From Haliotis rufescens (Eukaryota), in the NCBI RefSeq assembly GCF_023055435.1, contig NW_025964212.1:1426001-1490000 (forward strand): a DNA stretch of 64,000 nt. Reading direction: 5' to 3'. The notes under the pieces are model-generated. The model saw nothing but the letters and a program-made list of their open reading frames with translations. It searched no databases and was not told where the DNA came from. Below, piece by piece: positions 15,515 through 53,454 of the stretch (its first letter is position 1; every line of letters begins with the position of its first letter). The translations under genes were made by a program, and so were the position numbers.

Positions 15515-18500
15515 ACTATATGGTAGAAGAGAGTTGTTCTGTATATACTGATCTTGTTTTATAAATTAGCTTTTAATTCACTTTAGTATTTTGTCAGTAA
15601 TGTATATTTGTATACAGCAATGACTTATTGTATTTCTCATTTCAGGCTGCATAAGATGTTTAAGTTTGTTTACAACTTGTCGTAAGAAGCGACAAACGGG
15701 ATTGGGTATATGTCATTATATTTGAATTGGAATTTGTATCCCAAACACGTACCCATATACATACATATAACATGTTTCACATGTTCTCAATTATTGACTT
15801 TCGTATACAGTAAACGGCTCAAATTAATCGTATTTTTTTCGTCGTGGATTATGTCTAAACGTAATCGTCTTACGGTTTCAAAGCATTTACCTTTCAGGCA
15901 GCTGTCAATAACTATCTTGGAATGTATCCAAAGCCATTCGCATACTGATATTACATGGTGTTTACGACAGCAATGCTCGTCATCCATTAGGATATGTTTA
16001 TATATGATATGACTTATGCATGCATTGCGGGCGCGCCGTATTTTGAACGATTTATTTCCGGGTTCCTGTCAGATAGGCCTCGTGTTCGATTCCCTCATGA
16101 ATATTCAGGAAGGAATTTTAAGAATGACGTGTCTGATGTGTCGTTTCATCTTAAATCCAGATCAGGGGATACACCTTTATTTTCCAAGGCAATTCAGACG
16201 TCGGTATAACCAGAAACTAAAAACTCAATAAACACAGGACACTTCCAACAATGTTGCCACGACCTTACATGACAGTGGACAGAGAAAGAGAATATACTGT
16301 TTCAAAAAGATGGTTTAACACTGTTTTTATGATTTTCCAACTTCGCCTAAACGTCACAATAAAACTATGTCTAAACGTAATAGTCTAACTGTTTCAAAGC
16401 ATTTACCTTTCAGGCATCTGTCAATAACTATCTTGGAATGTATCCAAAGCCATTCGCCTACTGATATTATTTGGTGATTACGACAGCAATGCTCGTCACC
16501 CAAATCAAATCCATGTGATACAACACCTGTAATTACCATCATAATACATTGTATCTACACTTCATCTGGTCTGTGCTTTAATCAAAACGTCTTATTTAAA
16601 CGCAAAGAATCTCATAACCTACTTTCGCCTCAATTAACACGATTTCTAAATGACTGTCATTGATCTCGTCTTACATATACATGATAGAGTCTCAGAAGGT
16701 AATTTGTCTGTGATTCTCCGGTTTCAAAACTTAAAAACAACTAAAATGTCACATCCTGCCTTCGCATTTCGAAGGAACAAATCGATAGAGTATTTGCAAT
16801 TTCAGTTTAAAGTTTTAACTTCACATCCAAATGATAGCACTGGGGACAAAGCTATTCGCCCTCAGTATGTGTTGTGCATATTTTGTATACTGTTGGTTTA
16901 GTCTTCGATAAGATGAATTGATTCTTCTGAGTGGAACTTTCTCATCGCCTTGATTTGCATAAGAATGTCTACTGAAGAACACTCAGTGCAAAGTGCTGAG
17001 ACATGTACGTGGTCCTTACACCCATGCTACTTCATATTCCTACGGTAAAGTCCACGTTATACTGGTAATGAAACACGCCTTGGTTTCCGTGGAATGTCAT
17101 CAGGGTGCACGTAATTGACGTAAATGAATGGCTTGGGTTTGTGAAGAAAGTTTAATGTCACGGCATTTAGTGAAACGAGTTGTAATATAAGAGTTGGAGC
17201 TGTAAAAACGGGTATTAGGATTACAGTCACAAAGCGTTTCAGGGGCTACTTTATAAACCTTTCACATTTATAAGACCTCGGTCTAGTGGATAGAGCGTCT
17301 TATCGAAGAGCGAGAAGTCGCTGGTGCGATCCCCTGGCCGCGCCAAACCAGAATACTTTAAGAGATGGTACTTGTTGTTACACTGCCTGTCATTCAGCAT
17401 TTAAGGGATAAAACAAAGACTGGTAGGCGCGGAGTCAGTATAATGTGGGGTGTTCTTGTTAAGCAGAGGTATGGGATTTCAATGGGACCAGACAATCCAG
17501 TGATCGATATTGTGAACACCTATCCACGCCGTAGGTGTACGATGACAAGTAATGAAACACGTCATGGAATGTGACCATCCGATCCATTTGGTCGCCTCTT
17601 ACAGCCAGCATAAGTTGCTGAGGATCTGATCGAACCCAGTTACCCGATGGGGTCCCCGTGAGAGGAAGAATTATTAGTGAACATGTCAATCCGGCATACA
17701 TAGACGCCACTTAATTTATTTCATTTAAGTATCAAACATCTATGCCTTTATATTAACCATCCCATACTTACCTTAGAAAACATTAAGCATCACTCCTTTA
17801 TCTTCATATACACCGAACTTTTTGTTTTATACTGAGTGCGGCGTAAAACAACAAACTAACCAACCAATCATAGCGTCTGTGGTCCAGTCGTCTGATGCAC
17901 AACAGTTCGTTGTCCGGTGTTGCGTTCCTTAGGCGTGCCAGAAACCTATGCTCGACCCTGATTATGATCTTACTAGGTTTGTCGTGCGTTATACTATACT
18001 CTTGTGGTTCATTAAAGAGGTAAACTTGTATGAGCTACATCACTTAGTCCTTTCCTCCCACATTAAGCTGAAACGCCGTGATATAACTGAAATACTCTTA
18101 AAAAGCGGCGTTATACCAAACTGACTCACTAGAATACATTTCAATATGAGTATATCACTTTCTGATAATGTTATTCTGGGTACGATTTTATTAATGATTT
18201 TTCATTTTTGAAAATACACAGAAGGCGGTGCTTCACCTTTTGCAGGTTGCGATAAATGGACTGATCGAATTCAATTCGGAAAACTATAACTACTGTAAGC
18301 TGTGGTATTCACGACCACATGTCAGCTGCAGTCGTTGTTTGTCTGAACAAGCCAATTCAGTGATTGACAGTATGGGCATCGATGTACGCAATTGGTATAC
18401 GATGACATCCATCAACCACTTGCAAGTCCGCGAGTCTGATCACCCGATCCAGTCAGTCGCCTCTTATGACAAGCGCGTGTCATCTGAAGTGTTGATGATG

Positions 18501-19341: not shown

Positions 19342-21607
19342 CATAATAAAGGGAGCTGACCTTGCCACCTAACGGGTGATCCGGTTACCGCGGCTGTGAT
19401 TTAAGCTAGTTGATATTGCAATGACTATTCCTGAAACCTACTTTGTGGTTGACCAGATCCACGCTGATGCCCGTCTCCCAACTTATGTCTTGACATTGTA
19501 ATAAGTGACAAGTGTGAAACTGAGACATTGTTTGTCATAGTTATTACCTAGTTTTGTCTTGTTGCATGTTAAACTTCATAGCAATGTTCTGACTTATGCT
19601 ATATGTCAGTGGAGACTGTTGTAAATTGTGTTGCTAGAGGCAGCAAAAGATTGAAGCGCTAGTAAAATATCGAGCGTTGTCGGCGTTAGCAAGTGGAAAT
19701 TAAAGTTTCCGTCCTTGTTTATGAACACAGCGCGTATTTCTCTGTGCGTGACACCTTCGTTACACGCCTGATAAAACGCTGCCGCCAGTGTGGACACGGC
19801 TATAACAAGAATCTTGTAGTTTGCCCTCTGTCTCCAAATGTAGTGATACCTAACATTTTGTGTCTCTTTGGGAATGCCAAAAGTTATTTAATTAAGTTGT
19901 TTAATTTTAAAGAAAGGTTTACGACAGACTTTACGATGGTTCAATATTCTTGATTACCGGAAAAGCACTAAACTACCTACTTTTATTCTTACTGTATAAA
20001 TTACTGTATGTGTTAGTTAAGATGCAATAAAATTTCGAAAAACAAAATAATTTAGCTGATGGAATAGTGTTCGGCGTCAAGACAGTCATCGCTGATAGAG
20101 CCCACCTATGAAAGCAGTGAGTAGTGACTGGAGGCAGTGATTTTACGAGAAGTTAGGCAGGAGAGAGTTTCTGGAAGGTTCGCAGTACTTGTACAAGAGT
20201 GATAAGAGGGCGGTTTGAGGCCAGGTGCGGTTTGCATACCTCATTGTAAACACCGAACTCCTGCAAGCTTCCAACACTATCTCAGATTCGAGAACAGAGA
20301 CGTGACAAAAACATCTGAACATTCGTGAGTGCACTCACATTACTTACACGGCCTGCTACTTATTGCTGCTGCCACTTTTTGGACACACAGTGTTGCCTTA
20401 AGTGACTGTAAATCTAACATTGTGTGTTTCCACATAATAGATTGATTATTCATTGATCTTGTGTGGTCATTTTCTGATTTCACAATTTAGTTCTCTACGT
20501 ACCAATTTCTGGGTTAACCTTTGCGTTTCAATTCGTCACCTCAGACCACTGCCTTGTTTGATACGGTTTATCAATATGATTATTCTAATAATATCAATGT
20601 CATATTGTTCTTCCAATAGGCATATTTCATAACAATTTGCTTTACGTATTTTGTTTGAAATATAAGAAACCCACGTAAATCTTTGATTCACTCTTTGAGA
20701 AAACATGAGAACAAACACGCCCTACAGTAGTTTATAATTTTTAGTTTCTATCATGGATTTTGTCTCTTGCTTTGAGGTTTGAAAGCCAGACAGTGATTAT
20801 ATATTCTAATTAAAAAGTTCTGACTGGTCTTTAATAATGAGGAATCTTTGTAGGATTTCAATTTGGAATATGTCACACCTTAAAGGCATATCACTGTAAA
20901 GCAGACAAATACATAGACATGCATTATTATAAATACGCAATCAATACCGCCATCCAGACGAGAGACAGATCAGTTTATGGAGGATACGAAATGATAAACA
21001 ATAAACAATATATTATGTATACTCATGTATCAGAATCGTCAACAACAAACATACGTTCACATATACATACAAGCAAACATACATACAATATGTTTAATAA
21101 TCTACCCATTGATGGACTTTCGTATATTTGTACATAACTTATATTATCCATATCATTTTCGTCGTGGATTGTGTCTAAACGTTATCGTCTTACTGTTTCA
21201 AAGCATTTACCTTTCAGGCACCTATCAATAACTATCTTGAAATGTATCTCAAGTCATTCGCCTACTTGTATTTCACAGTGATTATTTCAGCTTAGACAGC
21301 AATGCAACTCATCATCCAAATCAATTCATTGATCTAACAATTGTAATTACCATCACCATACTTAGTGTCTACTCTCTATCTGTTCTGTGCTTTAATCAAA
21401 CTGGTTCTCCTCAGCAAGACGTCTTATTGAAACCAACCTTGTCCAATGTTAACACGATTTCTAAATGACTGTCATTGATCTCGTCTTACATATACATGAT
21501 AGAGTCTCAGAAGGTAATTTGTCTGCGATTTTCCTGTTTCAAAACCTGAAAACAACTAAAATGTTACATCCTGCCTTCACATTTCGAAGGAACAAATCGA
21601 TAGAGTA

Positions 21608-22093
21608 TTTGCAACTTCAGTTTAAAGTATTAACTTCACATTCAAATGATAGCACTGGGGACATAGCTGTTCGCCCTCAGTATGTGTTGTGCATATTTTG
21701 TATACAGTTGGTTTAGTCTTCGATAAGATGAATTGATTTTCTGAGTGGAACTTTCTCATCGCCTTGATTTGCAATTTCAGTTTAAAGTATTAACTTCATA
21801 TTCAAATGATAGCACTGGGGACATAGCTGTTCGCCCTCAGTATGTGTTGTGCATATTTTCTATACAGTTGGTTTAGTCTTCGATAAGATGAATTGATTTT
21901 CTGAGTGGAACTTTCTCATCGCCTTGATTTGCAATTTCAGTTTAAAGTATTAACTTCATATTCAAATGATAGCACTGGGGACATAGCTGTTCGCCCTCAG
22001 TATGTGTTGTGCATATTTTCTATACAGTTGGTTTAGTCTTCGATAAGATGAATTGATTTTCTGAGTGGAACTTTCTCATCGCCTTGATTTGCA
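21608..22093. repeat. Three tandem copies of a 160 bp unit, unique to duplication unit 2
   Basis: TTGCAA(C/T)TTCAGTTTAAAGTATTAAC recurs at ~21609, 21769 and 21929. Confidence 0.95.
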
Positions 22094-39025: not shown

Positions 39026-39065
39026 CATCTGATGAAGGAGTAAGCATATACTCCGAAACGTTGTG
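39026..39065 (+). ncRNA. Minimal type-I hammerhead ribozyme motif in a Penelope-type pseudo-LTR
   Basis: CAU-CUGAUGA-A-GGAGUA(AGCAUA)UACUCC-GAAA-CGUU-GUG: core, 6-bp helix II, palindromic ACGU helix III, 3-bp helix I. AATAAA follows once the SINE insertion is removed. Confidence 0.75.
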
Positions 39066-39077
39066 TTCCTCATAATA

Positions 39078-39369
39078 GGGGGCACGGGTGGCCCAGTCGT
39101 CTAAGGCGCCGCGATTCGCTGTGCAGAGTCGCGTCCCTTGGGCACGCCAGAAACCCATGATTGTGGGTTCGAATCCCGGTTCGCCCCGATTATGTTTCTA
39201 GGTTTGTCAGCACCATACCCGTGCTCGTGGGTTTCACCGAAGTGGTCAACGTCTGAGACCTGCATCACTTCGGGCTTTCCTCCCACATTAAGCTGACACG
39301 CCGTAGTATAACTGGAATACTGTTAAAAGCGGCGTTAAACCCAACTCACTCACTCACTCACTCACTCAC
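39078..39369 (+). mobile_element. SINE family C (tRNA-Leu-like head), young, with TSD
   Basis: A box GGTGGCCCAGTCGTCTAAGG, B box GGTTCGAATCCCGG, (CTCA)n tail. 11-bp TSD TCCTCATAATA at 39067-39077 and 39370-39380. Confidence 0.95.
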
Positions 39370-40156
39370 TCCTCATAATAAAGAAGTTGACATCCATAAA
39401 TTCTCTTTCTTATGTGTATCACTTCTAAATGCCTTTCAAAGACACACTCCAGATGTTGTATTAATTCGCCATTGATTGACACACGTCTCTGGACCAAGAT
39501 AAGAGTCGAGTCATGTGGCGAATTCTGTGATATGTCAAGGTTATTTGTTTGTGTAAAATCAATCCACTTGGCGTGTATGTCTCGATGTCACATCCTATCT
39601 TATTACCACCAGTGTGTTTGTCGTGGTGGTTTCATTTGAAGACTGTACAGAACAATGGTTGCCAATTAATCTGCTTAAGAACTCCGCTTGTCGTAAACCA
39701 TCAAAACTAATTTGCACTGATCGATGGCCTCTTTACGAAACTACGATGCCATTGATCACAAGGCTGGTGTGAGTCTAGTCTTCGATATACCAAGACTCAT
39801 TGTGGGTTATGTAATCAGTGCTTCGTCATATTTCCAAATAATAGTAAATTTACGTACAGACACACACTATAGACTATTTAATAGACAGGTGAATTGGAAG
39901 ATTTGTTGCGGGGATTCATGTTCATCCTAATTGTATTCATAATTTGTGTCAAACTGCGCATCAGTGGGGATGGCAAACAGTCTAACATACAAAATCATGT
40001 CGGACAACTTTGCTATTTGTGCTCATGATTACTACTATCTGTGTAATTCAATTAAATTCTAAAATCTACTCAACAACAAAAGTTCCCGTGACACCAATAT
40101 TTAGTGTATTCTTTTAAACAAGTAAAGTTTGGTTTTCAATATATTTGTAGTACATG

Positions 40157-41702
40157 TATGGAATCAAGTCACAAAAACGCAACTGCTACAGAAAAGCATG
40201 CATTCCATGCAAAAGTTGACTTTTATGCAAGCCCCATGCATTTCACTACCCAAGAATGGGTATAAAAACGTGCGTTAACGGAAGTCCATATGCATTGTTT
40301 AGCATCGTGCTGACAACAACAACTCAGAAAAACAACAAAATTACGCAATTATTCAACATTACGAAATGCCACGCCTGTCCGAAAATGAGCGTCTGCGAGC
40401 CATTGGTATGCTTGAAGCAGGATCGAGTCAAGGTGATGTTGCAAGACAATTTAACGTCCACAGAAACACCATTTTGGTGTTTATGGCAACGTTGGCAACA
40501 GACGAATGCAGTCAGAGGGCCATCCTCGGAGTGGCAGGCCACGCGTAACCAATAATCGACAAGACAACTGGATTCGAACAACACACCTACGAAATTCATT
40601 CCAGCCAGCAACAGTGACTGCAAGAAGCATCCCTGGCCTTCGACGAATATCTTCACGAACCGTACGTCGTCGCCTCAGATGTGCAGGTATTGTCGCCAGA
40701 AGACCCGCCAGACGTCCCATTTTGACAGGAAACCACCGTCAAGCACGTCTACAGTGGTGCAGACAGCGTCAACGATGGACGGTCATGCAGTGGGGACCGG
40801 TTCCATTCACTGACGAGTCTCGTTTTCACCTCAGCCACAGCGATGGACGGATTCAAGTGTACCGACGTCGAGGTGAACGTTTCGTCAATCATTGTGTCAT
40901 GGAAGAAGATCGGTTCGGGGGCGGCAGCGTTATGGTATAAGGTGGGATTACAGCAAGACAGAAGACCCGTTTGATAATTGTAGAGGGAAATCTCAATGGA
41001 CAGCGCTACCGCGACGAGACTGTTGTTCTACCATTTTTGCGTCGTCATGGCCCAGGCTTTACCTTTCAACATGACAACGCCCGACCTCATATTGCTCGAC
41101 TTGTTCAGGATTCTCAAAGCATGTGCACCGCCAACTCGTTGTCAACAGACATTTATCAAACCTTTTCATGTCTTTAATCAAGGTACTCGCGTGATTTGAT
41201 GCACTTCGCGATGTAAGACCCGTTTTATCACAATATAGATCTTGATTATCGATCAGATTGTCTTGACTGGCGCCGCCATTTTGATTGAACAAATGCAAGT
41301 GATGGAATCTGATTGGTCCATAGGAGAGGCTTAGAAGGGACATAACTCGTAATAACCACTGGTGGCGCTACGATCGAGCCCAGGAATTCCAGCCTGGTTC
41401 GACAAGGGTGGAAACTGGACTTTTAAAGTCAGTTAACTCTCTTGCCTCGGGAAGATGGGTCCATTCCATAAGAAGTAGATGTGTTGCTTGCATCGCAACC
41501 AGAGTAGACACACACGCTATTGATTTGTAAATTGACATTTTGGCATGTTCATGTTTTTTTTTTATGAAATCACGCATTTTCTTAAGTTAGTATGGCAAAT
41601 TAAACCATTTGAACACTTACAGGAGTCTTTTATCTGTTGCAAACCGAAATTGTTTCAATTTTGGTAAAAAACATAACTTTGCATTACATCTTACTCAATG
41701 TC
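40157..41702 (+). mobile_element. Degenerate Tc1-family transposon
   Basis: MPRLSENERLRAIGML...DVARQFNVH (40366), RSGRPRVT, FTDESRF, GGGSVMV*GGI, FQHDNARPH. Frameshifted. TATA at ~40261. Termini approximate. Confidence 0.9.
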
Positions 41703-41853
41703 ACAGGAACTTTTGTTGTCGGTATAATTATCAATGTGGCGAGGTCGGAGGTAGGAAAATCCCACTGAATGCTTTGGCTTGGGTTGTCACGGATGTGGTC
41801 TGATAGAGCTGATCATTTAAAGTCATCTTTGGAGACTGAGCTTTGATGTTCTT

Positions 41854-42057
41854 CTTTCAGTGGCATTTAGAAGTTGGTGTGACGAAGAAAGACAAGTTCT
41901 ATGGATGAACAACTTCTTTATTACAATTAGTGCCACGTTTCGGTGTAGATCCTAACATGATAAAGATGACTTGCTTGATAAAGGTGTTAGGATCTACACC
42001 GAAACGTCGTACTAATTGTAATAAAGAAGTTGTTCATCCATAGAACTTGTCTTTCTT
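41854..42057. mobile_element. Penelope-type pseudo-LTR insertion with an inverted partial copy (73-bp arms)
   Basis: 41885-41957 is the reverse complement of 41985-42057. Flanked by direct repeat CTTTGATGTTCTT at 41841 and 42055. Confidence 0.8.
41972..42011 (+). ncRNA. Variant (U3-A8) minimal hammerhead ribozyme motif
   Basis: UGC-UUGAUAA-A-GGUGU(UAGGAUCU)ACACC-GAAA-CGUC-GUA, then AATAAA at 42020. Confidence 0.7.
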
Positions 42058-44315
42058 TGATGTTCTTTTATTCGGGTTTTGAGGGGCCTAGATGTTTCTC
42101 CTATGTAAGCTTGTCCACAATTGCACGGAATGTGATACACTGCTCCTGATGGTTCTAGCTTGTGGCTGGATGGTGGTTTCCCTGTGGCTTTAATTGTGTT
42201 CTGAATGGTATGACTACATCAAACTACAAAACTACATCAATGTTGGCCTGTTTCTTTTTAAAAAATTCTAAAACAGTTATCAATGTGGCGAGGTCGGAGG
42301 TAAGAAAATTGTATAATCGTATAATTATTACATTGTTTCCTAATAAATGTTGAATATAAAAAGTATAAAATATTTGATCCCTTGTAATCGGCGAATTTCA
42401 AAATTCAATCCTTTCGGGCTATACCCATATTTGTCAAACATATTGCAGGTGACATTCCGAACCTTAATCTAATGAATCTATCACTGACAAAACATAGTTA
42501 TTTTCGTACTCCAACAGGAAACACACATTATGCCACGGCTCACTGTAATAGCGTGATTTGTGACTACGTTTATGCCTTTTTACGTACTTTAAAGTGGACC
42601 TATCTGTTTATCTGATATCCAATTCAGACGCGTAGATGATAAACAAAAAACATGAAGACAAAAGATTTATCGGTCGATTATTGCTCCAATGTTTTCCAAG
42701 TAGTACAAAGCCGGTTGAGGCCAAACCAGGACATCGGGTCATTATCTCAATATGAATAAACGTGATTGATGGATGAACACAAGAACCCAGACTCAGGGAT
42801 CCAACTACTAGGCTACCCAGCCATCCCTATGAAACGATATTATTTCAATTGAGAGCGATAACTTACAGTTGTAGCGGTTTGTATTGTACATGGAAGAGTG
42901 TTTTTGTTTTCATTAAGTGATCGCGTTCACAGACAGTTGATTCTCAATTATCCATGGCAAGTAATAACAGAGTTCCATGTCCCCATTGTTGTCCGTTTTA
43001 TTCCCGATGATGCAATGATCTCGGTATTGGAATTGAGACTGTTTGGAAAGTAAACAGATATACAAATAAGGCGATCAACTCCATCAATTTTGCAAACCCA
43101 CACACAGGGAATCTCTAAAAGAAATGTAATTGGAAATTGACACGCCTGCGAAGGTTGCGTTGTTACAAGCAGATCAAAGGGTGATGGGCTGTAACTTCAC
43201 GTTTCGAAATCATCTTTATTTGTCATTGATCAACTGGATATCAATAGGAGATCGTTTCACAAACATCAATCGAGTGGATGATCGCCACTGCTGGCAATCA
43301 TGGAATCTCAACTATCGCATAAATTTTCATTTCGTGTACTTAGTAGTCTCCGACTAATACACAGGGACTTGTGACTATGATCACACATCAGGTCATGGCG
43401 AAATGTGTGTGTATGGTTGAGTTGGGTTTTAACCTATTATTTAGTTATCACACTGTGTTGGAATATACGTAATGAAAGAGCCGGAAAGCAAAGGGAATCG
43501 CGACGAAGACATTTACCACTTACGTGAAACCTGGTTATGGAGCTCTTTGTTTTGAAATGTTACTTTGTACCTCAAAGGTTGTGCAGACTTCTTGGCCAAA
43601 TTCCCTTATTCAAAGTTTGCCAATCCGAGCAGAACTTCTGAACATGACTCGTATGCATACAGAAACAGATCAACAAGAAGGAGAGCACAAATGGTACCCC
43701 AAATTTCAAGTCCAGCATGGAATGGGCAAATGGAAGCCAGCAAGAAGCATATCTGGCTTGAAGCATATCTAGCTGGCTTCCATTTGCTCATTGCTATTTC
43801 TATTCTTTTACCTATCAATGCTTAATCCCCAGCCTGCCGTTTACCAATTGTTCATTGTCAATTACAAATCAGTGGTATTTTAAGTCCTGGCTTCCAGGTG
43901 TTCACAACTAAGTCCAGCATTTCCCATTTTGTTTTTCGCAGTAAACTTAGTAAACTTCTCAAAGAGTAACAAATAGTTGAGAGGTTTGTGTGTTGCTGCT
44001 AATTGACATTTGATATATCAACATTTACGCTTTCGTGAAACCTGGTTATGGTGCTCTCTGTCGAAGATCCCGTAACCAGGTCATATACAACAAAAGGATG
44101 CAACTCTGATCTCGAGCCGTAACTCACATTGTATATATCTACCAACACAATAGAAACGCGCTCAACAAACAAAATCTAGAGCACTATTGTTTCCCACTCC
44201 ACACTGATTGATTAAAATGACAATCTGGTGGTTGCAATGTGTGACCTCCATGACTGTTCATCATAAAGCGACGGCGTGGTCGGTTAAATGACGTGTACGG
44301 TTGCTCACTCAATCA

Positions 44316-47750: not shown

Positions 47751-49155
47751 AAGGGTGCCCCTTCAATCCTATCAAGAGAGAGTCCCACTCAAGCGTGAGT
47801 GGGTGAGTTTGGTTCCTCGTCACCTTGAACTGGGAAGACACTATATAAATATTTCGTTAATAATTACAGATGCTAATTTCAAAGCAATATCATTGGAAGT
47901 ACTAAAGCTTACAGTTACGGCTTATAGTGCCTTGAGAAGGTCAGAAGTAAAGGACATTATCTTCAGTGAGCAACTTAATCGTTGAAGCTATTTCCTTTAC
48001 TCCCTGTGGGGATCCTATGTACAGGTAATCAGCTATTGTGTGTATTTCAGTAACACAACTTTTTGTTTATTGTCCATCCGAATAACACGATTATGACGTC
48101 CTTGGAAATCACTGAAACTTTGACCTTGATGTCTGATTTGCCTTTATGAAGGACATTCACCTTTGAGTATCTGATTGTTTTTGTGGTAAAATGTAAGTTA
48201 CATTATCAGACTCTAAATTACATTCTAAGTTTGAATGTAAAGTTTGAGTTGTCTTTCTCTAAATTGCAATGAAGAGCTACTTGAAGAGTTTACCATCTGG
48301 TTATTGTCGTATCGATAAAGAAGACGCTGGATAAAAAGAACCAACAGGAAGACAAGTTCCATTCATCCACTATTGACAACATAGCCAGGATCATAAATAT
48401 AAACTGAGCAATGTTCTGATAGTGTGTGCTGAACCATTTTATTGTATTACTTTTACCACATACTGATCTGAATCATAGGCTGTGCCAGTCCAGGTTTTAT
48501 TCACAGGCTATCAGACGTTGTTGTGGAGAAATGCGTTTGGAAACGAAGCTGAAGAGAGCAGTCAGAATATTTAACTTTTCTGACATCCGCATGCATCATT
48601 TAATTCATTCACTTGTTGATCTTTACATTGGCCGGTATCAAATATATCTCGCTCAGTAATCTCCAGAATAATGCTGTAAATAATACGAGCGGAACATGGG
48701 GGAAATAGTTAGACGCAATAAATGACGTGGTCTTTCTATTCTTTCAAAAAGGTGTAACACACGGTCTTATCACGAACATGACTAATTGTATAGATGCATA
48801 TGGGTACTTCTATTCTTCTCTACATTTTCCGATCATGGTGCATCGAACACTCCGAAATAATAATATATCATTTCGCCCGTAACAGCATTTTCCACTCAGG
48901 GAAAGGTCAGCCTCTTGCAAAGACATTCTAAAATCTATTTGATGTCGTAATAATCCCCAAAAAGACAAAATCAAAATAATATTGTTGCTGAGATTGGCAA
49001 ACACACAAAGCTCACAATAGCAGCAGCTGGATCTTCAGAAAACCCGGATTCTTTGGTGTGGGCTTACTGCTCATCGAAGTTAACAAACGTATTGGTTACG
49101 CTGGCACTGTAATCAAACATCATCTGTTTCTTTTATGAGGTATTACCATCAACGA

Positions 49156-49553
49156 GAAAGTATGAATACACAATGCCATTTAGAAAGTGGCCAAATGTAA
49201 CAAACGTTATATTTGAGATAACACTTTCTTAGTGTAGTACAAATTCTGACACCTTTTGGGGGTTGAGTCTTATCCCCGTTTGAACCCACACTCTCAGAGT
49301 GAGGCATCCTATCGCCAGCACACGAAGTCTGTGATCTGAACCACTCAACCACGGAGGCTTTCACGAGCCCACTCAGCTTCCGAAACTTCCACGAGGTGAC
49401 CGAGTGTGTTAAATCGCTGACTTTGTGTGCTAGCGATGAAGTGCCTCGCTCTGACAGTGTGGGTTCGAATCCCAGATGGGACTTAACCCCAAAATATAAC
49501 AAGCATTTGTACTTAACTATGAAAGTGTTATCCCAAATATAACATTTGTTACA
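49156..49553. mobile_element. Head-to-head inverted pair of tRNA(Ser/Leu)-like elements (family E)
   Basis: Right arm has A box GGTGACCGAGTG (49395) and B box GGTTCGAATCCC (49462). The left arm is its reverse complement. Outer arms at 49196-49228 and 49521-49553. Confidence 0.8.
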
Positions 49554-50119
49554 ACGAGAAATTAGTTTTACGTGAAGATGTAGATGAAATACACTCACAA
49601 GAATTAAAGTATGATTGCGTTGGATGCATAATCTGTTTTGTCACCATGGGTTACACACTGTGCACAACTAAAAGAGAACACAGCACATAAGTGAGTGAGT
49701 GAGTATGGTTTTACGCCGTTTTTAGCAGTATTCCTGTAATATCACGGCTGAGGACACTAGAAATGGGCCACTTTCGTAAGTATTTTAAAAGCCTTATTTT
49801 CTTCAGTTTGTTCGAAAACATGGCTTCAACTATCATGATTTAGTAGATGACTTGAAATGTCAGATACGTTTAAGCACCAATTCATCGAATTAGATACCTA
49901 TATCATTTTACGTGAGAATAAACACAATTCCACACATGTATGAGGCACGAATAATAATTATTGAAATGTTTCATATGGATCTATTTGAAGCTTTTCTGTA
50001 TACCAGGAAAACACCTTTTTGTGAATACGTCCAGGCATAACCAACATGTACCATGTCATATACCCATTGCAATTGCTTTGTGATCTCGAAAGGTAGCAGT
50101 CAACAAACACATGCAAGTG

Positions 50120-50510
50120 AATTGTTTACAAGAAAATACACTGGACCCTATGGTACAAATGAAAATAAGGAATTGTATCGGACATAATTTTGTCACTGAT
50201 GCGTCTAATTTGGAAATGTCTTCCAAATGTCTACAATTAAACGGTTTGCTCGCTTTGCTGAGACATGATGAAACCCTGATCTCACAATGTTTGGGAAAGA
50301 GTCGTGGAAAGAACATGTTCAGTTGTACCTCAAAAGCTATAAAGTGTAGACACCAAAGGCTGGAGTTGCAGGAATAGTGCTTGACACAAGTTCCGAGGGC
50401 TGATTAGTGGGTAGTCATCCCTCTTGTCATACAGTCTTGTGGAGTTTGCTATCACTCTAAATCTTTATACATAAATCGAATTATGAAACAGACGAGGTCG
50501 TTGCACTCGT
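50120..50510 (-). pseudogene. Penelope-like RT remnant
   Basis: Minus strand reads TRLYDKRDDY at ~50410-50440. Confidence 0.65.
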
Positions 50511-51840
50511 CTCTTTTATTTCTATTAACTGAAATAGAATAAGTAATCAGGATTTAAAAGCTGTAAAAGACTGCTTGGATCTTATGGTCGTAACTTGAGT
50601 CAACGCTAATGTTGTTTCAACTGAAAGAACTTATTAACGAATATCAATATCAATAGATGAATCCACAGCAGTATAGGATTTATGTTAATACATTTGATGG
50701 GTCAACCCTGGCACTAAGAGGCAACAAATATATTTCAAAATGAATACGTTCATACAGGACACATTTGATAGGAAAGATGAAATGATACCCTCACACAAAA
50801 CAGAATTGCCATGAGATATTTACTTAACACAACTGCCCTTAAGTTGATATATTTTCTGATGATTTTCCCACGACAACCATCAAGAACACGAAATGATGTT
50901 GGTGGTATCTAAAATGACAGCTGTGTCTCTTGAACATCCTGGTTTTTGTTCCTCACGCTGTTTGATATTACCTAAAATAGCGAAAGGGTCATAGTGTCTC
51001 AGCCACTGGTAGTGTCCTGCATCCGTCGAAATAGACAAGATTTACCGCTTTTTACTAGTCTTTGATGTAACTGCCAAAAGAATTTGGAAAGGAACCTCCA
51101 TGTAATTATAAGGGTTCCTTTGAGAGCCCATATTCATGATAACGGAAAACGTCCCATGGAACGTGTAGGTTAGTTCGGTATTTATGTTCTATGACTTTTC
51201 ATATGTGAGTTTAAAAGATTCCTTCTTTTTGTTCACTTACAGAAGGGTTAAAATATTGTAATTTGACCATGAATTGAATTCATTTGTCAACAAGTACCAG
51301 TCTGACGATTGGGAGTTTCTAAAGTTTGGAATGGCTGACGATTGCGGGGAAATGTATATGTGTATAGTCCATCAAAAGATATGAAATATGTACACAACAA
51401 CGAATTCTTTTCTTGTTAAAGAATTATCTGTGACAAATAAACTAAATAAGAAAAAGTTCCTTGTGCATCAGCCCTGCAATATATATCCTGCGCATTAATT
51501 AGTGACATGTTTGCCGCTGAAAAATGGTTAAACGAGGCAAATAGTGTTATCTATATAAAGAACACACTGACATTGTATGAGAGAGCTGAGTTCAATGTAT
51601 TCAAAGCGTTAATTTGTGTTTGCTGGTATTCTTTGTGAGGAAAGAACATAAACAGTGTTCGCCCCTCTCCACTTCGGTTTTAAATAACGAAATTTAAAAC
51701 AGTTCTACCTGTCGCCCTACATTTGACAAACATGTGCCCAAGAAACAATTTGTATTGCAGCCTAGTGTATATTTGTTGAAAGTAACATTTTTATGTTTCG
51801 TGATAGTGAGACCATTTAATTTCTAATTACAATATGAAGA

Positions 51841-52289
51841 ATGAACACACACAAAGCCATTAAGAAAGGGGTCAAATGTAACTCTACAAATGTTATATTT
51901 GGGATAACACTTTCTTTGTAAAGTACAGATTCTCGTATTTTCTGGGTGCCTCAGTCTGGAAGTGTGGTTTCAAGTCCCGAATGGGACTCGACCCCAAAAA
52001 GTACGAGAATATGATTTTACAAAGAAACTGTTATCCCAAATATAACATTTGTTACCTTTGACTACTTTCTAAATGGCAGTGTGTGTGTTCATAGCTTTCG
52101 GCCATGGGAGCTGTGCCATTTTACACCTGTCAGAGGGGTACACAAAATAAGTTGTCATTTTCTGTGGAAGCTTCGGTGGCCGAGAGGGTTAGATGGCTGA
52201 CTTTGTGTGCTGGCGATTAAGTTTCCACTCTGGCAGTGTGGGTACGAGAATCTGTACTTTACAAAGAAAGTGTTATCCCAAATATAACA
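51841..52289 (+). mobile_element. Family E element: inverted partial copy followed by partial tandem copies
   Basis: 51841-51946 is inverted. Forward 3' half at 51946-52162, then a new head GGTGGCCGAGAGGG at ~52174 running to AATATAACAT. Confidence 0.8.
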
Positions 52290-53454
52290 TAAGTTAAATT
52301 AGAAGAATACAAACATGTAGATGGTCAGATACCCTTTGCTGTAACGTTTTTGAGAAAACATACTATTCCAGATCAGTTAACAAGCTAGTGCTTTCGAACT
52401 GAGATGTTGGAGCATGGAAAAATAAAGGTTAGATAGGTAGGTGACGAGGCAGGCAATAGCGTCAGTAAAAGTCGGTCGGATTAGCGGTATGACGAATGGC
52501 ACTAATCAGCCTATACAAACACACTGGTCTGAAAAAAACACATTTTGTAAAAATACATATTGACTAACGACTGCTTATTCTGGACAATTTGAGTCGAGTG
52601 AACAGCCTTTTTTTATAGCGCTAACGAGGCGTAAGGGTATTATCTCATGACAGTAGTAACAGGACAATGAAGGGTCTTTAGTCAGCGTAACATGATAGGG
52701 AACATGACGCATTCACCAGACAGACATATGCATTAACCTTTTCCATTTCGTGTGGCAATTAGCCTGGTCTAGACGCACTGTATCTGGTGGAAAAAAAAAG
52801 GTCGGTGACACACTAACGGAAACGTATGTTATTGTGGAAAACGGGAGGCTTGAGCATGTATGCTTCTTTGAGAAGGACATTCTGTGCCTGTTGCACAATG
52901 AAGACTATACTTTGTATTACCACAAGGGTAAAACATGTCCGTGCACAAATGTTTATAGTGTGCACATATCACTTTCAGTTATTGTAGGAATTTGATTGGC
53001 GGATTGTGAACCCGGACCTTTGCAAGACTACTTCCGCTACATTTATATTCAAATAACAAGATATACGGAAAAGCAAGGAAGACACACTACAGTAATTTTA
53101 TTTCTTATTTTATCATCTGAAGTAGTTTAACAGAAAACACTATCTTATTTCAATAAACATATGCAGTTGATTATCTATTTTGACGAACGAAGGCGTGCGT
53201 GTCCAGGATAACAGAAGTATTTGGATGAGGAAAGACTAGAAGTATTACCCCGCAGCTGACCAATATTAACACAAATTACAAATCACAAAACTGCAAAGTT
53301 AGAAAGCATATTATACTCTTAAATGTTGTGAAGAGCACAAAAGATGAACACATTCAGTTTGACATGATTATTTCTTACACTGCCGTACTGGAGTGGTGTC
53401 CACTTCTGCCCAGTAGATAGCGCCGGCTCCGAGTTCCAAATTCACTAAAGTAAG

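Follow-up and report, generated by a model that had tools for sequence, protein, structure and literature searches.

A 297-nt tRNA-headed repeat without a hammerhead, likely inserted by Penelope-type machinery and probably copied from a circular RNA

The partners of SINEs on record are, to our knowledge, LINEs, and the short animal passengers of Penelope-like elements (PLEs) that we know of are all defined by hammerheads. Two places in the window (the whole stretch of 64,000 nucleotides that was analyzed) carry a repeat, here called family E, in which a tRNA-like head precedes a module resembling PLE pseudo-LTRs (pLTRs). This raises the question of which machinery inserts the repeat and which form of its RNA is copied. 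A preliminary description had proposed a Penelope-mobilized SINE in which a tRNA-derived promoter stands in for the hammerhead. We conclude, with a probability of about 0.55, that family E, a non-coding repeat of 297 nt headed by a tRNA-like sequence and devoid of a hammerhead, is likely inserted by the reverse transcriptase (RT) and endonuclease (EN) of Penelope/Poseidon-type elements, probably from a circular unit-length RNA.

Within the window the repeat is present as two insertions, at 49161-49553 and 51841-52290, in agreement with the two stretches proposed before, and both show the inverted arm first and then the direct arm. Their features and those of two PLE comparators are as follows (CM, covariance model built from PLE junctions only; TSD, target-site duplication).

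49150-49159, plus strand: insertion 1, left TSD, 10 bp, identical to 49552-49561
49161-49364, minus strand: insertion 1, inverted arm, unit ~1-204 with the whole tRNA-like head and the module, long 3' end (blastn against the family yardstick, 85%)
49161-49229, minus strand: insertion 1, PLE-type module (CM 24.4 bits, E 0.0024)
49229-49222 with 49189-49182, minus strand: 8-bp stem of this module, the loop of which holds the short end
49179-49177, minus strand: relic ATG of this module, with a 34-nt tail
49276-49351, minus strand: inverted arm, A box (49351-49341) and B box (49286-49276), both degenerate
49365-49392, minus strand: insertion 1, short rearranged piece at the inversion junction, about the first 25 nt of the head (by reading the sequence, no statistics)
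49395-49553, plus strand: insertion 1, direct arm, unit ~12-169, short 3' end (87% to the yardstick)
49397-49407 and 49462-49472, plus strand: A box and B box of this direct arm
49552-49561, plus strand: insertion 1, right TSD, which overlaps the terminal bases of the short end
51841-51946, minus strand: insertion 2, inverted arm, unit ~105-203, long 3' end (blast covers 51849-51946; CM 19.4 bits)
51945-52092, plus strand: insertion 2, direct arm, first unit, 3' half of the head and then the module to the long end (CM 25.1 bits, E 0.0017)
52093-52163, plus strand: insertion 2, spacer, by alignment to PLE ORF starts a relic of where the partner ORF begins and internally deleted in this copy, then the T4 run
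52158-52161, plus strand: this T4 run, predicted Pol III terminator and unit junction
52164-52290, plus strand: insertion 2, second tandem unit with head start, A box (52177-52187), deleted B-box region and module cut near the short end
39030-39445, plus strand: comparator from a second PLE family, hammerhead plus module, interrupted by a LINE-type SINE (CM 47.5 bits)
41841-42067, no strand assigned: comparator, inverted hammerhead-type PLE pLTR insertion, not family E (CM 52.9 bits)

The window copies are old, and ARAGORN calls no tRNA in the window. The A and B boxes claimed for family E could be located in these copies in degenerate form, and the CGCCG and microsatellite tails of the other SINEs are indeed missing from them. 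Two statements of the preliminary description were not confirmed as worded. A clean TSD is lacking in insertion 2, where the duplication is only degenerate, whereas insertion 1 lies between perfect 10-bp repeats of the target (49150-49159 and 49552-49561). The restriction to inverted and partial-tandem copies applies to the two window insertions and not to the genome, where 18 of 81 sampled insertions were single 5'-truncated pieces. Features absent from that description are a spacer of ~90 nt with a T-run after the module and the identity of the ATG in CTAAATG with the start codon of the partner ORF.

Family E is a dispersed repeat: one 32-mer has 750 exact matches in the 1.33-Gb genome versus none for the reversed control, and a first-look search of the genome returned 2265 candidates. 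The repeat is also abundant in sequencing runs under two other organism labels (16279 and 14535 contigs); in run X24 of organism D only three contigs carry it. The younger copies yielded a unit of 297 nt consisting of the head (~1-102), the module (136-203), the spacer (204-292) and the T-run (293-297), followed by the next head. ARAGORN identified the head as tRNA-Thr(TGT) with a cloverleaf in 8 units from three of four E loci, and its alignment with two genomic tRNA-Thr genes was matched by none of 500 shuffles; the Rfam tRNA model found no match to the head in 8 E loci. The unit end is the site of the sole run of four or more T on the sense strand. Scanning of this strand revealed no hammerhead core, GAAA[CTA], canonical HDV, twister or pistol motif and no AATAAA, so that the absence of a hammerhead is well supported. 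Rfam scans of the window and the 8 E loci detected no ribozyme, in the E loci up to an E value of 5, but these scans are insensitive, because the window's own hammerheads escaped them too. An antisense CTGACAA motif was considered as a hammerhead and rejected (wrong strand, C3-A8 mismatch, no GAAA[CTA]).

A generic pattern of the module has 2757 matches versus 0 for the control, and in all 30 loci fetched from these matches the two strands of the stem covary (19 of the hammerhead-family type, 11 of the E type). In elements of the same genome with RT and GIY-YIG domains the module forms the junction of the 3' pLTR end and the ORF start. The 3' end of autonomous PLEs shows the order stop codon, TATA-like motif, hammerhead, AATAAA-like motif and module; in PLE 5' copies the ORF opens at the ATG of CTAAATG, and the spacer of family E starts with a relic of this ORF start. 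The comparator at 41841-42067 pairs a long end with a short one and is flanked by a duplication of 13 bp (41841-41853 and 42055-42067); its pLTR follows RT/GIY-YIG ORFs at L183 and L194. The pLTR of the comparator at 39030-39445 follows a GIY-YIG ORF at L198. The resemblance proposed between the E module and those at 39378 and 41853-42057 was confirmed; in four modules of the window, AAGAA and CTAAATG are separated by 44-48 nt.

To compare the module with PLE pLTRs we used a covariance model with 13 PLE junctions and no E sequence as input. It assigned 24-36 bits to E modules of young copies, which were the top 19 of 23 matches (14 loci, 9 of them E loci). Among 26 matches in the window, ranks 1 to 3 were PLE modules and ranks 4 and 5 were E modules (25.1 and 24.4 bits); an unrelated window repeat at 16602 reached 22.8 bits, near the scores of the old E copies. 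A sequence-only profile of the PLE junctions (nhmmer) had no match on family E, and the pairwise alignment of E to the PLE junction was not significant (265 of 1000 shuffles). No autonomous or hammerhead family with the exact stem of E was found, the 12 scattered matches being point variants, E copies or chance. We therefore regard the module of E as only a distant homologue. The autonomous partner was provisionally assigned to the Penelope/Poseidon type by its domain order and the lack of a linker zinc finger rather than by a tree, following the accessible part of the description in PMC8557442. A PDB sequence search with the partner ORF gave no match. A search for the GIY-YIG family returned mostly PLEs ending in (AT)n, a group which we take by motif to be Neptune-like; these were rejected as partners, the module being missing from them among the matches listed.

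Several further observations concern PLEs and neighbouring repeats. The repeat at 16602 belongs to window stretches 16550-16900 and 21380-22093, with 160-bp tandem units at 21607-22093; the PLE module model scores them at 22.8 and 17.8 bits. The SINE at 39078-39375, between PLE hammerhead and module, is of the LINE type, with a long tRNA-like head, an (ACTC)n tail and an apparent short duplication. The stretch 40360-41150 is, judged by eye, presumably a decayed Tc1/mariner-like transposase coding region. The presumably Neptune-like group rejected above, a second PLE group (L062-L089), has CxxC adjoining GIY-YIG, a hammerhead-like pLTR, (AT)n ends and a different 3' module. In 7 of 24 PLE loci shown (L182, L186, L187, L192, L199, L200 and L181) a LINE with RT and an RNase H-like ORF lies in the pLTR just upstream of the hammerhead, which suggests a targeting preference or a chimeric family. 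In a tandem array at G000:C90:23613281-23614746 every unit of ~169 bp corresponds to codons 1 to ~39 of the PLE ORF; at L300 such a unit occurs together with a hammerhead and module. The array resembles a retrozyme derived from a PLE in which, as in family E, ~100 nt downstream of the ATG have been retained. Poseidon-type families at window 41976-42010, L159 and L194 contain the U3-A8 variant of the hammerhead core, which is reported from other PLEs in the available part of PMC4209133.

The insertion pattern was analyzed in 81 family E insertions, obtained from the first 100 listed of the 750 32-mer matches by merging neighbouring rows; six rows from three repeated C2 sites were excluded, and L033 and L243 may represent one duplicated insertion. 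The right end was short (~169) in 38 cases, long (~203) in 33 and different in 10, and two fixed 3' ends ~34 nt apart thus account for 71 of the 81 insertions. In the contigs of run X15 the loose ends of family E also pile up at two sites 33-34 nt apart. An inverted 5' arm was found in 50 insertions and a crossing of the unit junction in 47; 18 were single truncated pieces. Both ends could be classed in 38 of the inverted insertions, and 33 of these combine one long with one short end (p 4e-6). Target duplications of 8-14 nt were detected in 27 of 50 inverted insertions versus 2 of 31 others (control 1.6%). The ends fall inside the PLE-type module without a simple-repeat tail, and PLE copies of this genome have a short stop at the loop position homologous to the short end of E. 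The hammerhead-type comparator at 41841-42067 conforms to this insertion pattern.

Penelope/Poseidon elements show the same habit. As far as the accessible texts go, they form partial tandems in which the 5' copy is inverted and one end bears a tail of 30-40 bp (PMC11167929, PMC8557442). PMC11167929 describes this optional tail as unique to PLEs and attributes it to a pair of internal RT starts within a stem-loop close to where the ORF begins, matching the two ends of E. In contrast to these elements, family E encodes neither RT nor EN and lacks TATA, hammerhead and AATAAA. Since it shares end points, inversions and target duplications with the Penelope elements of the genome, it is likely a SINE-like Penelope parasite. 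We consider it highly probable that Penelope-like machinery moves family E, as had been proposed, and its standing as a real Penelope-dependent, tRNA-headed repeat is well supported by module kinship and insertion pattern.

To characterize the template we inspected 163 loci, in which 136 of 145 arm crossings reaching the head start continued beyond it; 5' stops at this position showed no significant pile-up (7 observed versus 3.9 expected, P 0.10). The usual template is hence no linear monomer made by Pol III and must be a circle or a multimer. Tandem units of the same insertion have 251 of 1108 variant sites in common, compared with 545 of 17622 between loci, and agree at 77 of 128 diagnostic alleles, with 16.5 expected. 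They therefore come from one molecule or one source locus, and the discordance at the other 51 sites is partly later mutation. Among 65 pure T-runs, 15 were T4, 47 T5 and 3 T6, with no T2 or T3; 17 further runs were interrupted. The length varies between insertions without a tie to subfamily markers, which may be plain slippage; the G4 run of family E kept its length in 74 of 75 cases. Adjacent junctions of one insertion were the same in all 13 pairs.

The natural unit folds as a closed rod (z -6.1; none of 200 shuffles as stable), and in the predicted fold the first seven bases pair with those just before the T-run. Of 52 linkages tested between variant sites, the strongest (p 1.6e-7) concerns a predicted head-spacer pair with a compensatory change from U-A to C-G in 7 loci, probably by one event. 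The identical junctions and the closed fold point, as indirect signs, to a circular unit RNA. A tRNA-derived promoter as the source of the unit RNA is plausible from the A and B boxes, the sole T4+ run at the unit end and the paired 5' and 3' ends. One point against a joining of the ends is that a Pol III transcript with a triphosphate end is no obvious ligase substrate. For PLEs themselves, circular RNAs have been proposed (PMC4209133, in the part available).

The following route, in which the RNA would become circular without a ribozyme, is advanced tentatively, at slightly worse than even odds. Pol III would start at the head and end at the T4-6 run, and the unit RNA would fold to a rod with its first bases paired to those just before the U-tail. 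Some activity would then join the RNA ends to a circle. The PLE protein would grip the stem-loop and the spacer and cleave both target strands, cDNA synthesis would begin internally at the long or the short site, and reverse transcription may roll round the circle for up to ~2.9 units. Two primings, mostly one long and one short, would produce the inverted insertions.

An alternative that we regard as unlikely is mobilization by PLEs from a linear multimer, generated when Pol III or Pol II reads through tandem copies or through a master array that has escaped notice; it requires no circle and would work with or without transcription driven by the tRNA head. Passage of the head start and identical junctions fit this template equally well, and unprocessed multi-copy RNA works in vitro with ribozyme cleavage being dispensable, according to the accessible part of PMC11167929. 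However, internal initiation should make daughters shorter than the parent, so that arrays could not regenerate across subfamilies; in the 30 best loci, taken from 40 that were scored out of 4513 candidates, no array exceeded 857 nt or ~2.9 units, and subfamily markers do not track T-run length. Because a linear template with internal priming would only shorten arrays, a circle appears to be the simplest account of their regeneration.

We find it improbable that a linear Pol III monomer is copied by an RT that jumps from the RNA 5' end to the U-tail, kept adjacent by the terminal stem. The paired ends of the predicted fold and the slight, non-significant surplus of stops at the head start would suit such jumps, but jumps to a ragged U-tail should vary, whereas all 13 adjacent junctions match and the 65 pure runs include no T2 or T3 junction. 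Somewhat more improbable still is a retrozyme with another cutter, in which an unrecognized ribozyme or a tRNA-processing nuclease acting at the tRNA-like head releases the unit before ligation. Size, tandem habit and the head being callable as tRNA are in line with it; the sense-strand motif scan (hammerhead, canonical HDV, twister, pistol) and, as a weak test, the Rfam scan argue against it. A LINE-dependent SINE, MITE or TRIM with tandem and inverted forms arisen after insertion is very improbable: A and B boxes and variable TSDs are SINE-like and ~3% of bivalve SINE copies are tandem or palindromic (PMC11481361, accessible part), but this reading is already contradicted by the lack of a simple-repeat tail, the two fixed ends, the 62% of inverted insertions with unequal ends, the circular permutation, the near confinement of TSDs to inverted insertions and a module homologous to PLEs and not to LINEs. 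We thus rejected the class of ordinary LINE-tailed SINEs, whose LINE-derived 3' end with an A-rich or simple-repeat tail family E does not have, and the MITEs, as 31 of 81 insertions are not inverted and the inverted ones have unequal ends and variable length, hence no fixed terminal inverted repeats.

Family E was further compared with known systems, on the basis of the accessible parts of the publications cited. Non-LTR retrozymes (bioRxiv 10.64898/2026.07.22.740005) are likewise pLTR-related, with non-coding tandem units of ~300 nt, and are supposed to roll through a circular RNA, as is proposed here for E, but each unit carries a type I hammerhead, where family E has none and a tRNA-like head with A and B boxes instead. 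SM-alpha and Sj-alpha of Schistosoma (review PMC6765202), of which SM-alpha is conceptually the nearest relative of E, share the Pol III-type promoter boxes, the tandem arrangement and the non-autonomous nature; there an active hammerhead, absent in E, frees units from multimers, and for E the start module of the PLE partner is identified here. The TRIMp3 elements Helenus, Ajax and Cassandra (PMC10886601) are also a case of a Pol III promoter captured by a retroelement that does not depend on LINEs. They are LTR-dependent, with two LTRs, PBS/PPT and TSDs of 4-5 bp, whereas E has TSDs of 8-14 bp, variable 5' truncation and no LTR pair. Non-autonomous PLEs of Chlamys such as MRC1 (PMC8557442) resemble E in their pLTRs and head-to-tail insertions; the available text mentions no tRNA head or SINE. 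tRNA-derived SINEs (SINE2) have, like E, a tRNA-like head with A and B boxes followed by a recognition segment derived from the partner. Family E differs from them by a PLE instead of a LINE as partner, internal priming, circularly permuted copies and the lack of a simple-repeat tail.

In the parts available, Penelope is never mentioned in the TRIMp3 paper (PMC10886601) or in two mollusc SINE surveys (PMC4758252, PMC11481361), and a butterfly preprint mentions non-autonomous Penelope elements without tRNA heads. Full-text searches of the accessible literature brought up no tRNA-headed, ribozyme-less PLE passenger; Repbase, Dfam or SINEBase may already have an entry for family E, labelled as a SINE or as unknown. 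Family E may represent a third class of Pol III-promoted retro-parasite besides the SINEs that depend on LINEs and the TRIMp3 elements that depend on LTR elements, a Penelope-dependent SINE with ribozyme-free circular RNA, a classification that we hold with a little less than even confidence. The repeat suggests that a tRNA head can use Penelope machinery without a ribozyme, and it isolates an RNA signal of ~105 nt, stem-loop plus ORF-start relic, that the PLE protein seems to need. If the circle is true, there is a ribozyme-free route to circularize a Pol III transcript. Family E also offers a natural 297-nt substrate for asking whether circular or multimeric RNA lies behind the tandem and inverted insertions of PLEs, and what purpose the hammerhead serves.

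Two loci containing family E showed additional features. Directly upstream of an E copy, L011:48-1415 comprises ~19 tandem 70-bp repeats with part of the E module, which is a minisatellite born from family E. At L017:1273-1990, three small-RNA runs of organism D gave 1, 21 and 2 reads, 24 in all, mostly antisense to family E and revealing no start site of Pol III transcription; five of them share one start, and these small RNAs are possibly piRNA-like.
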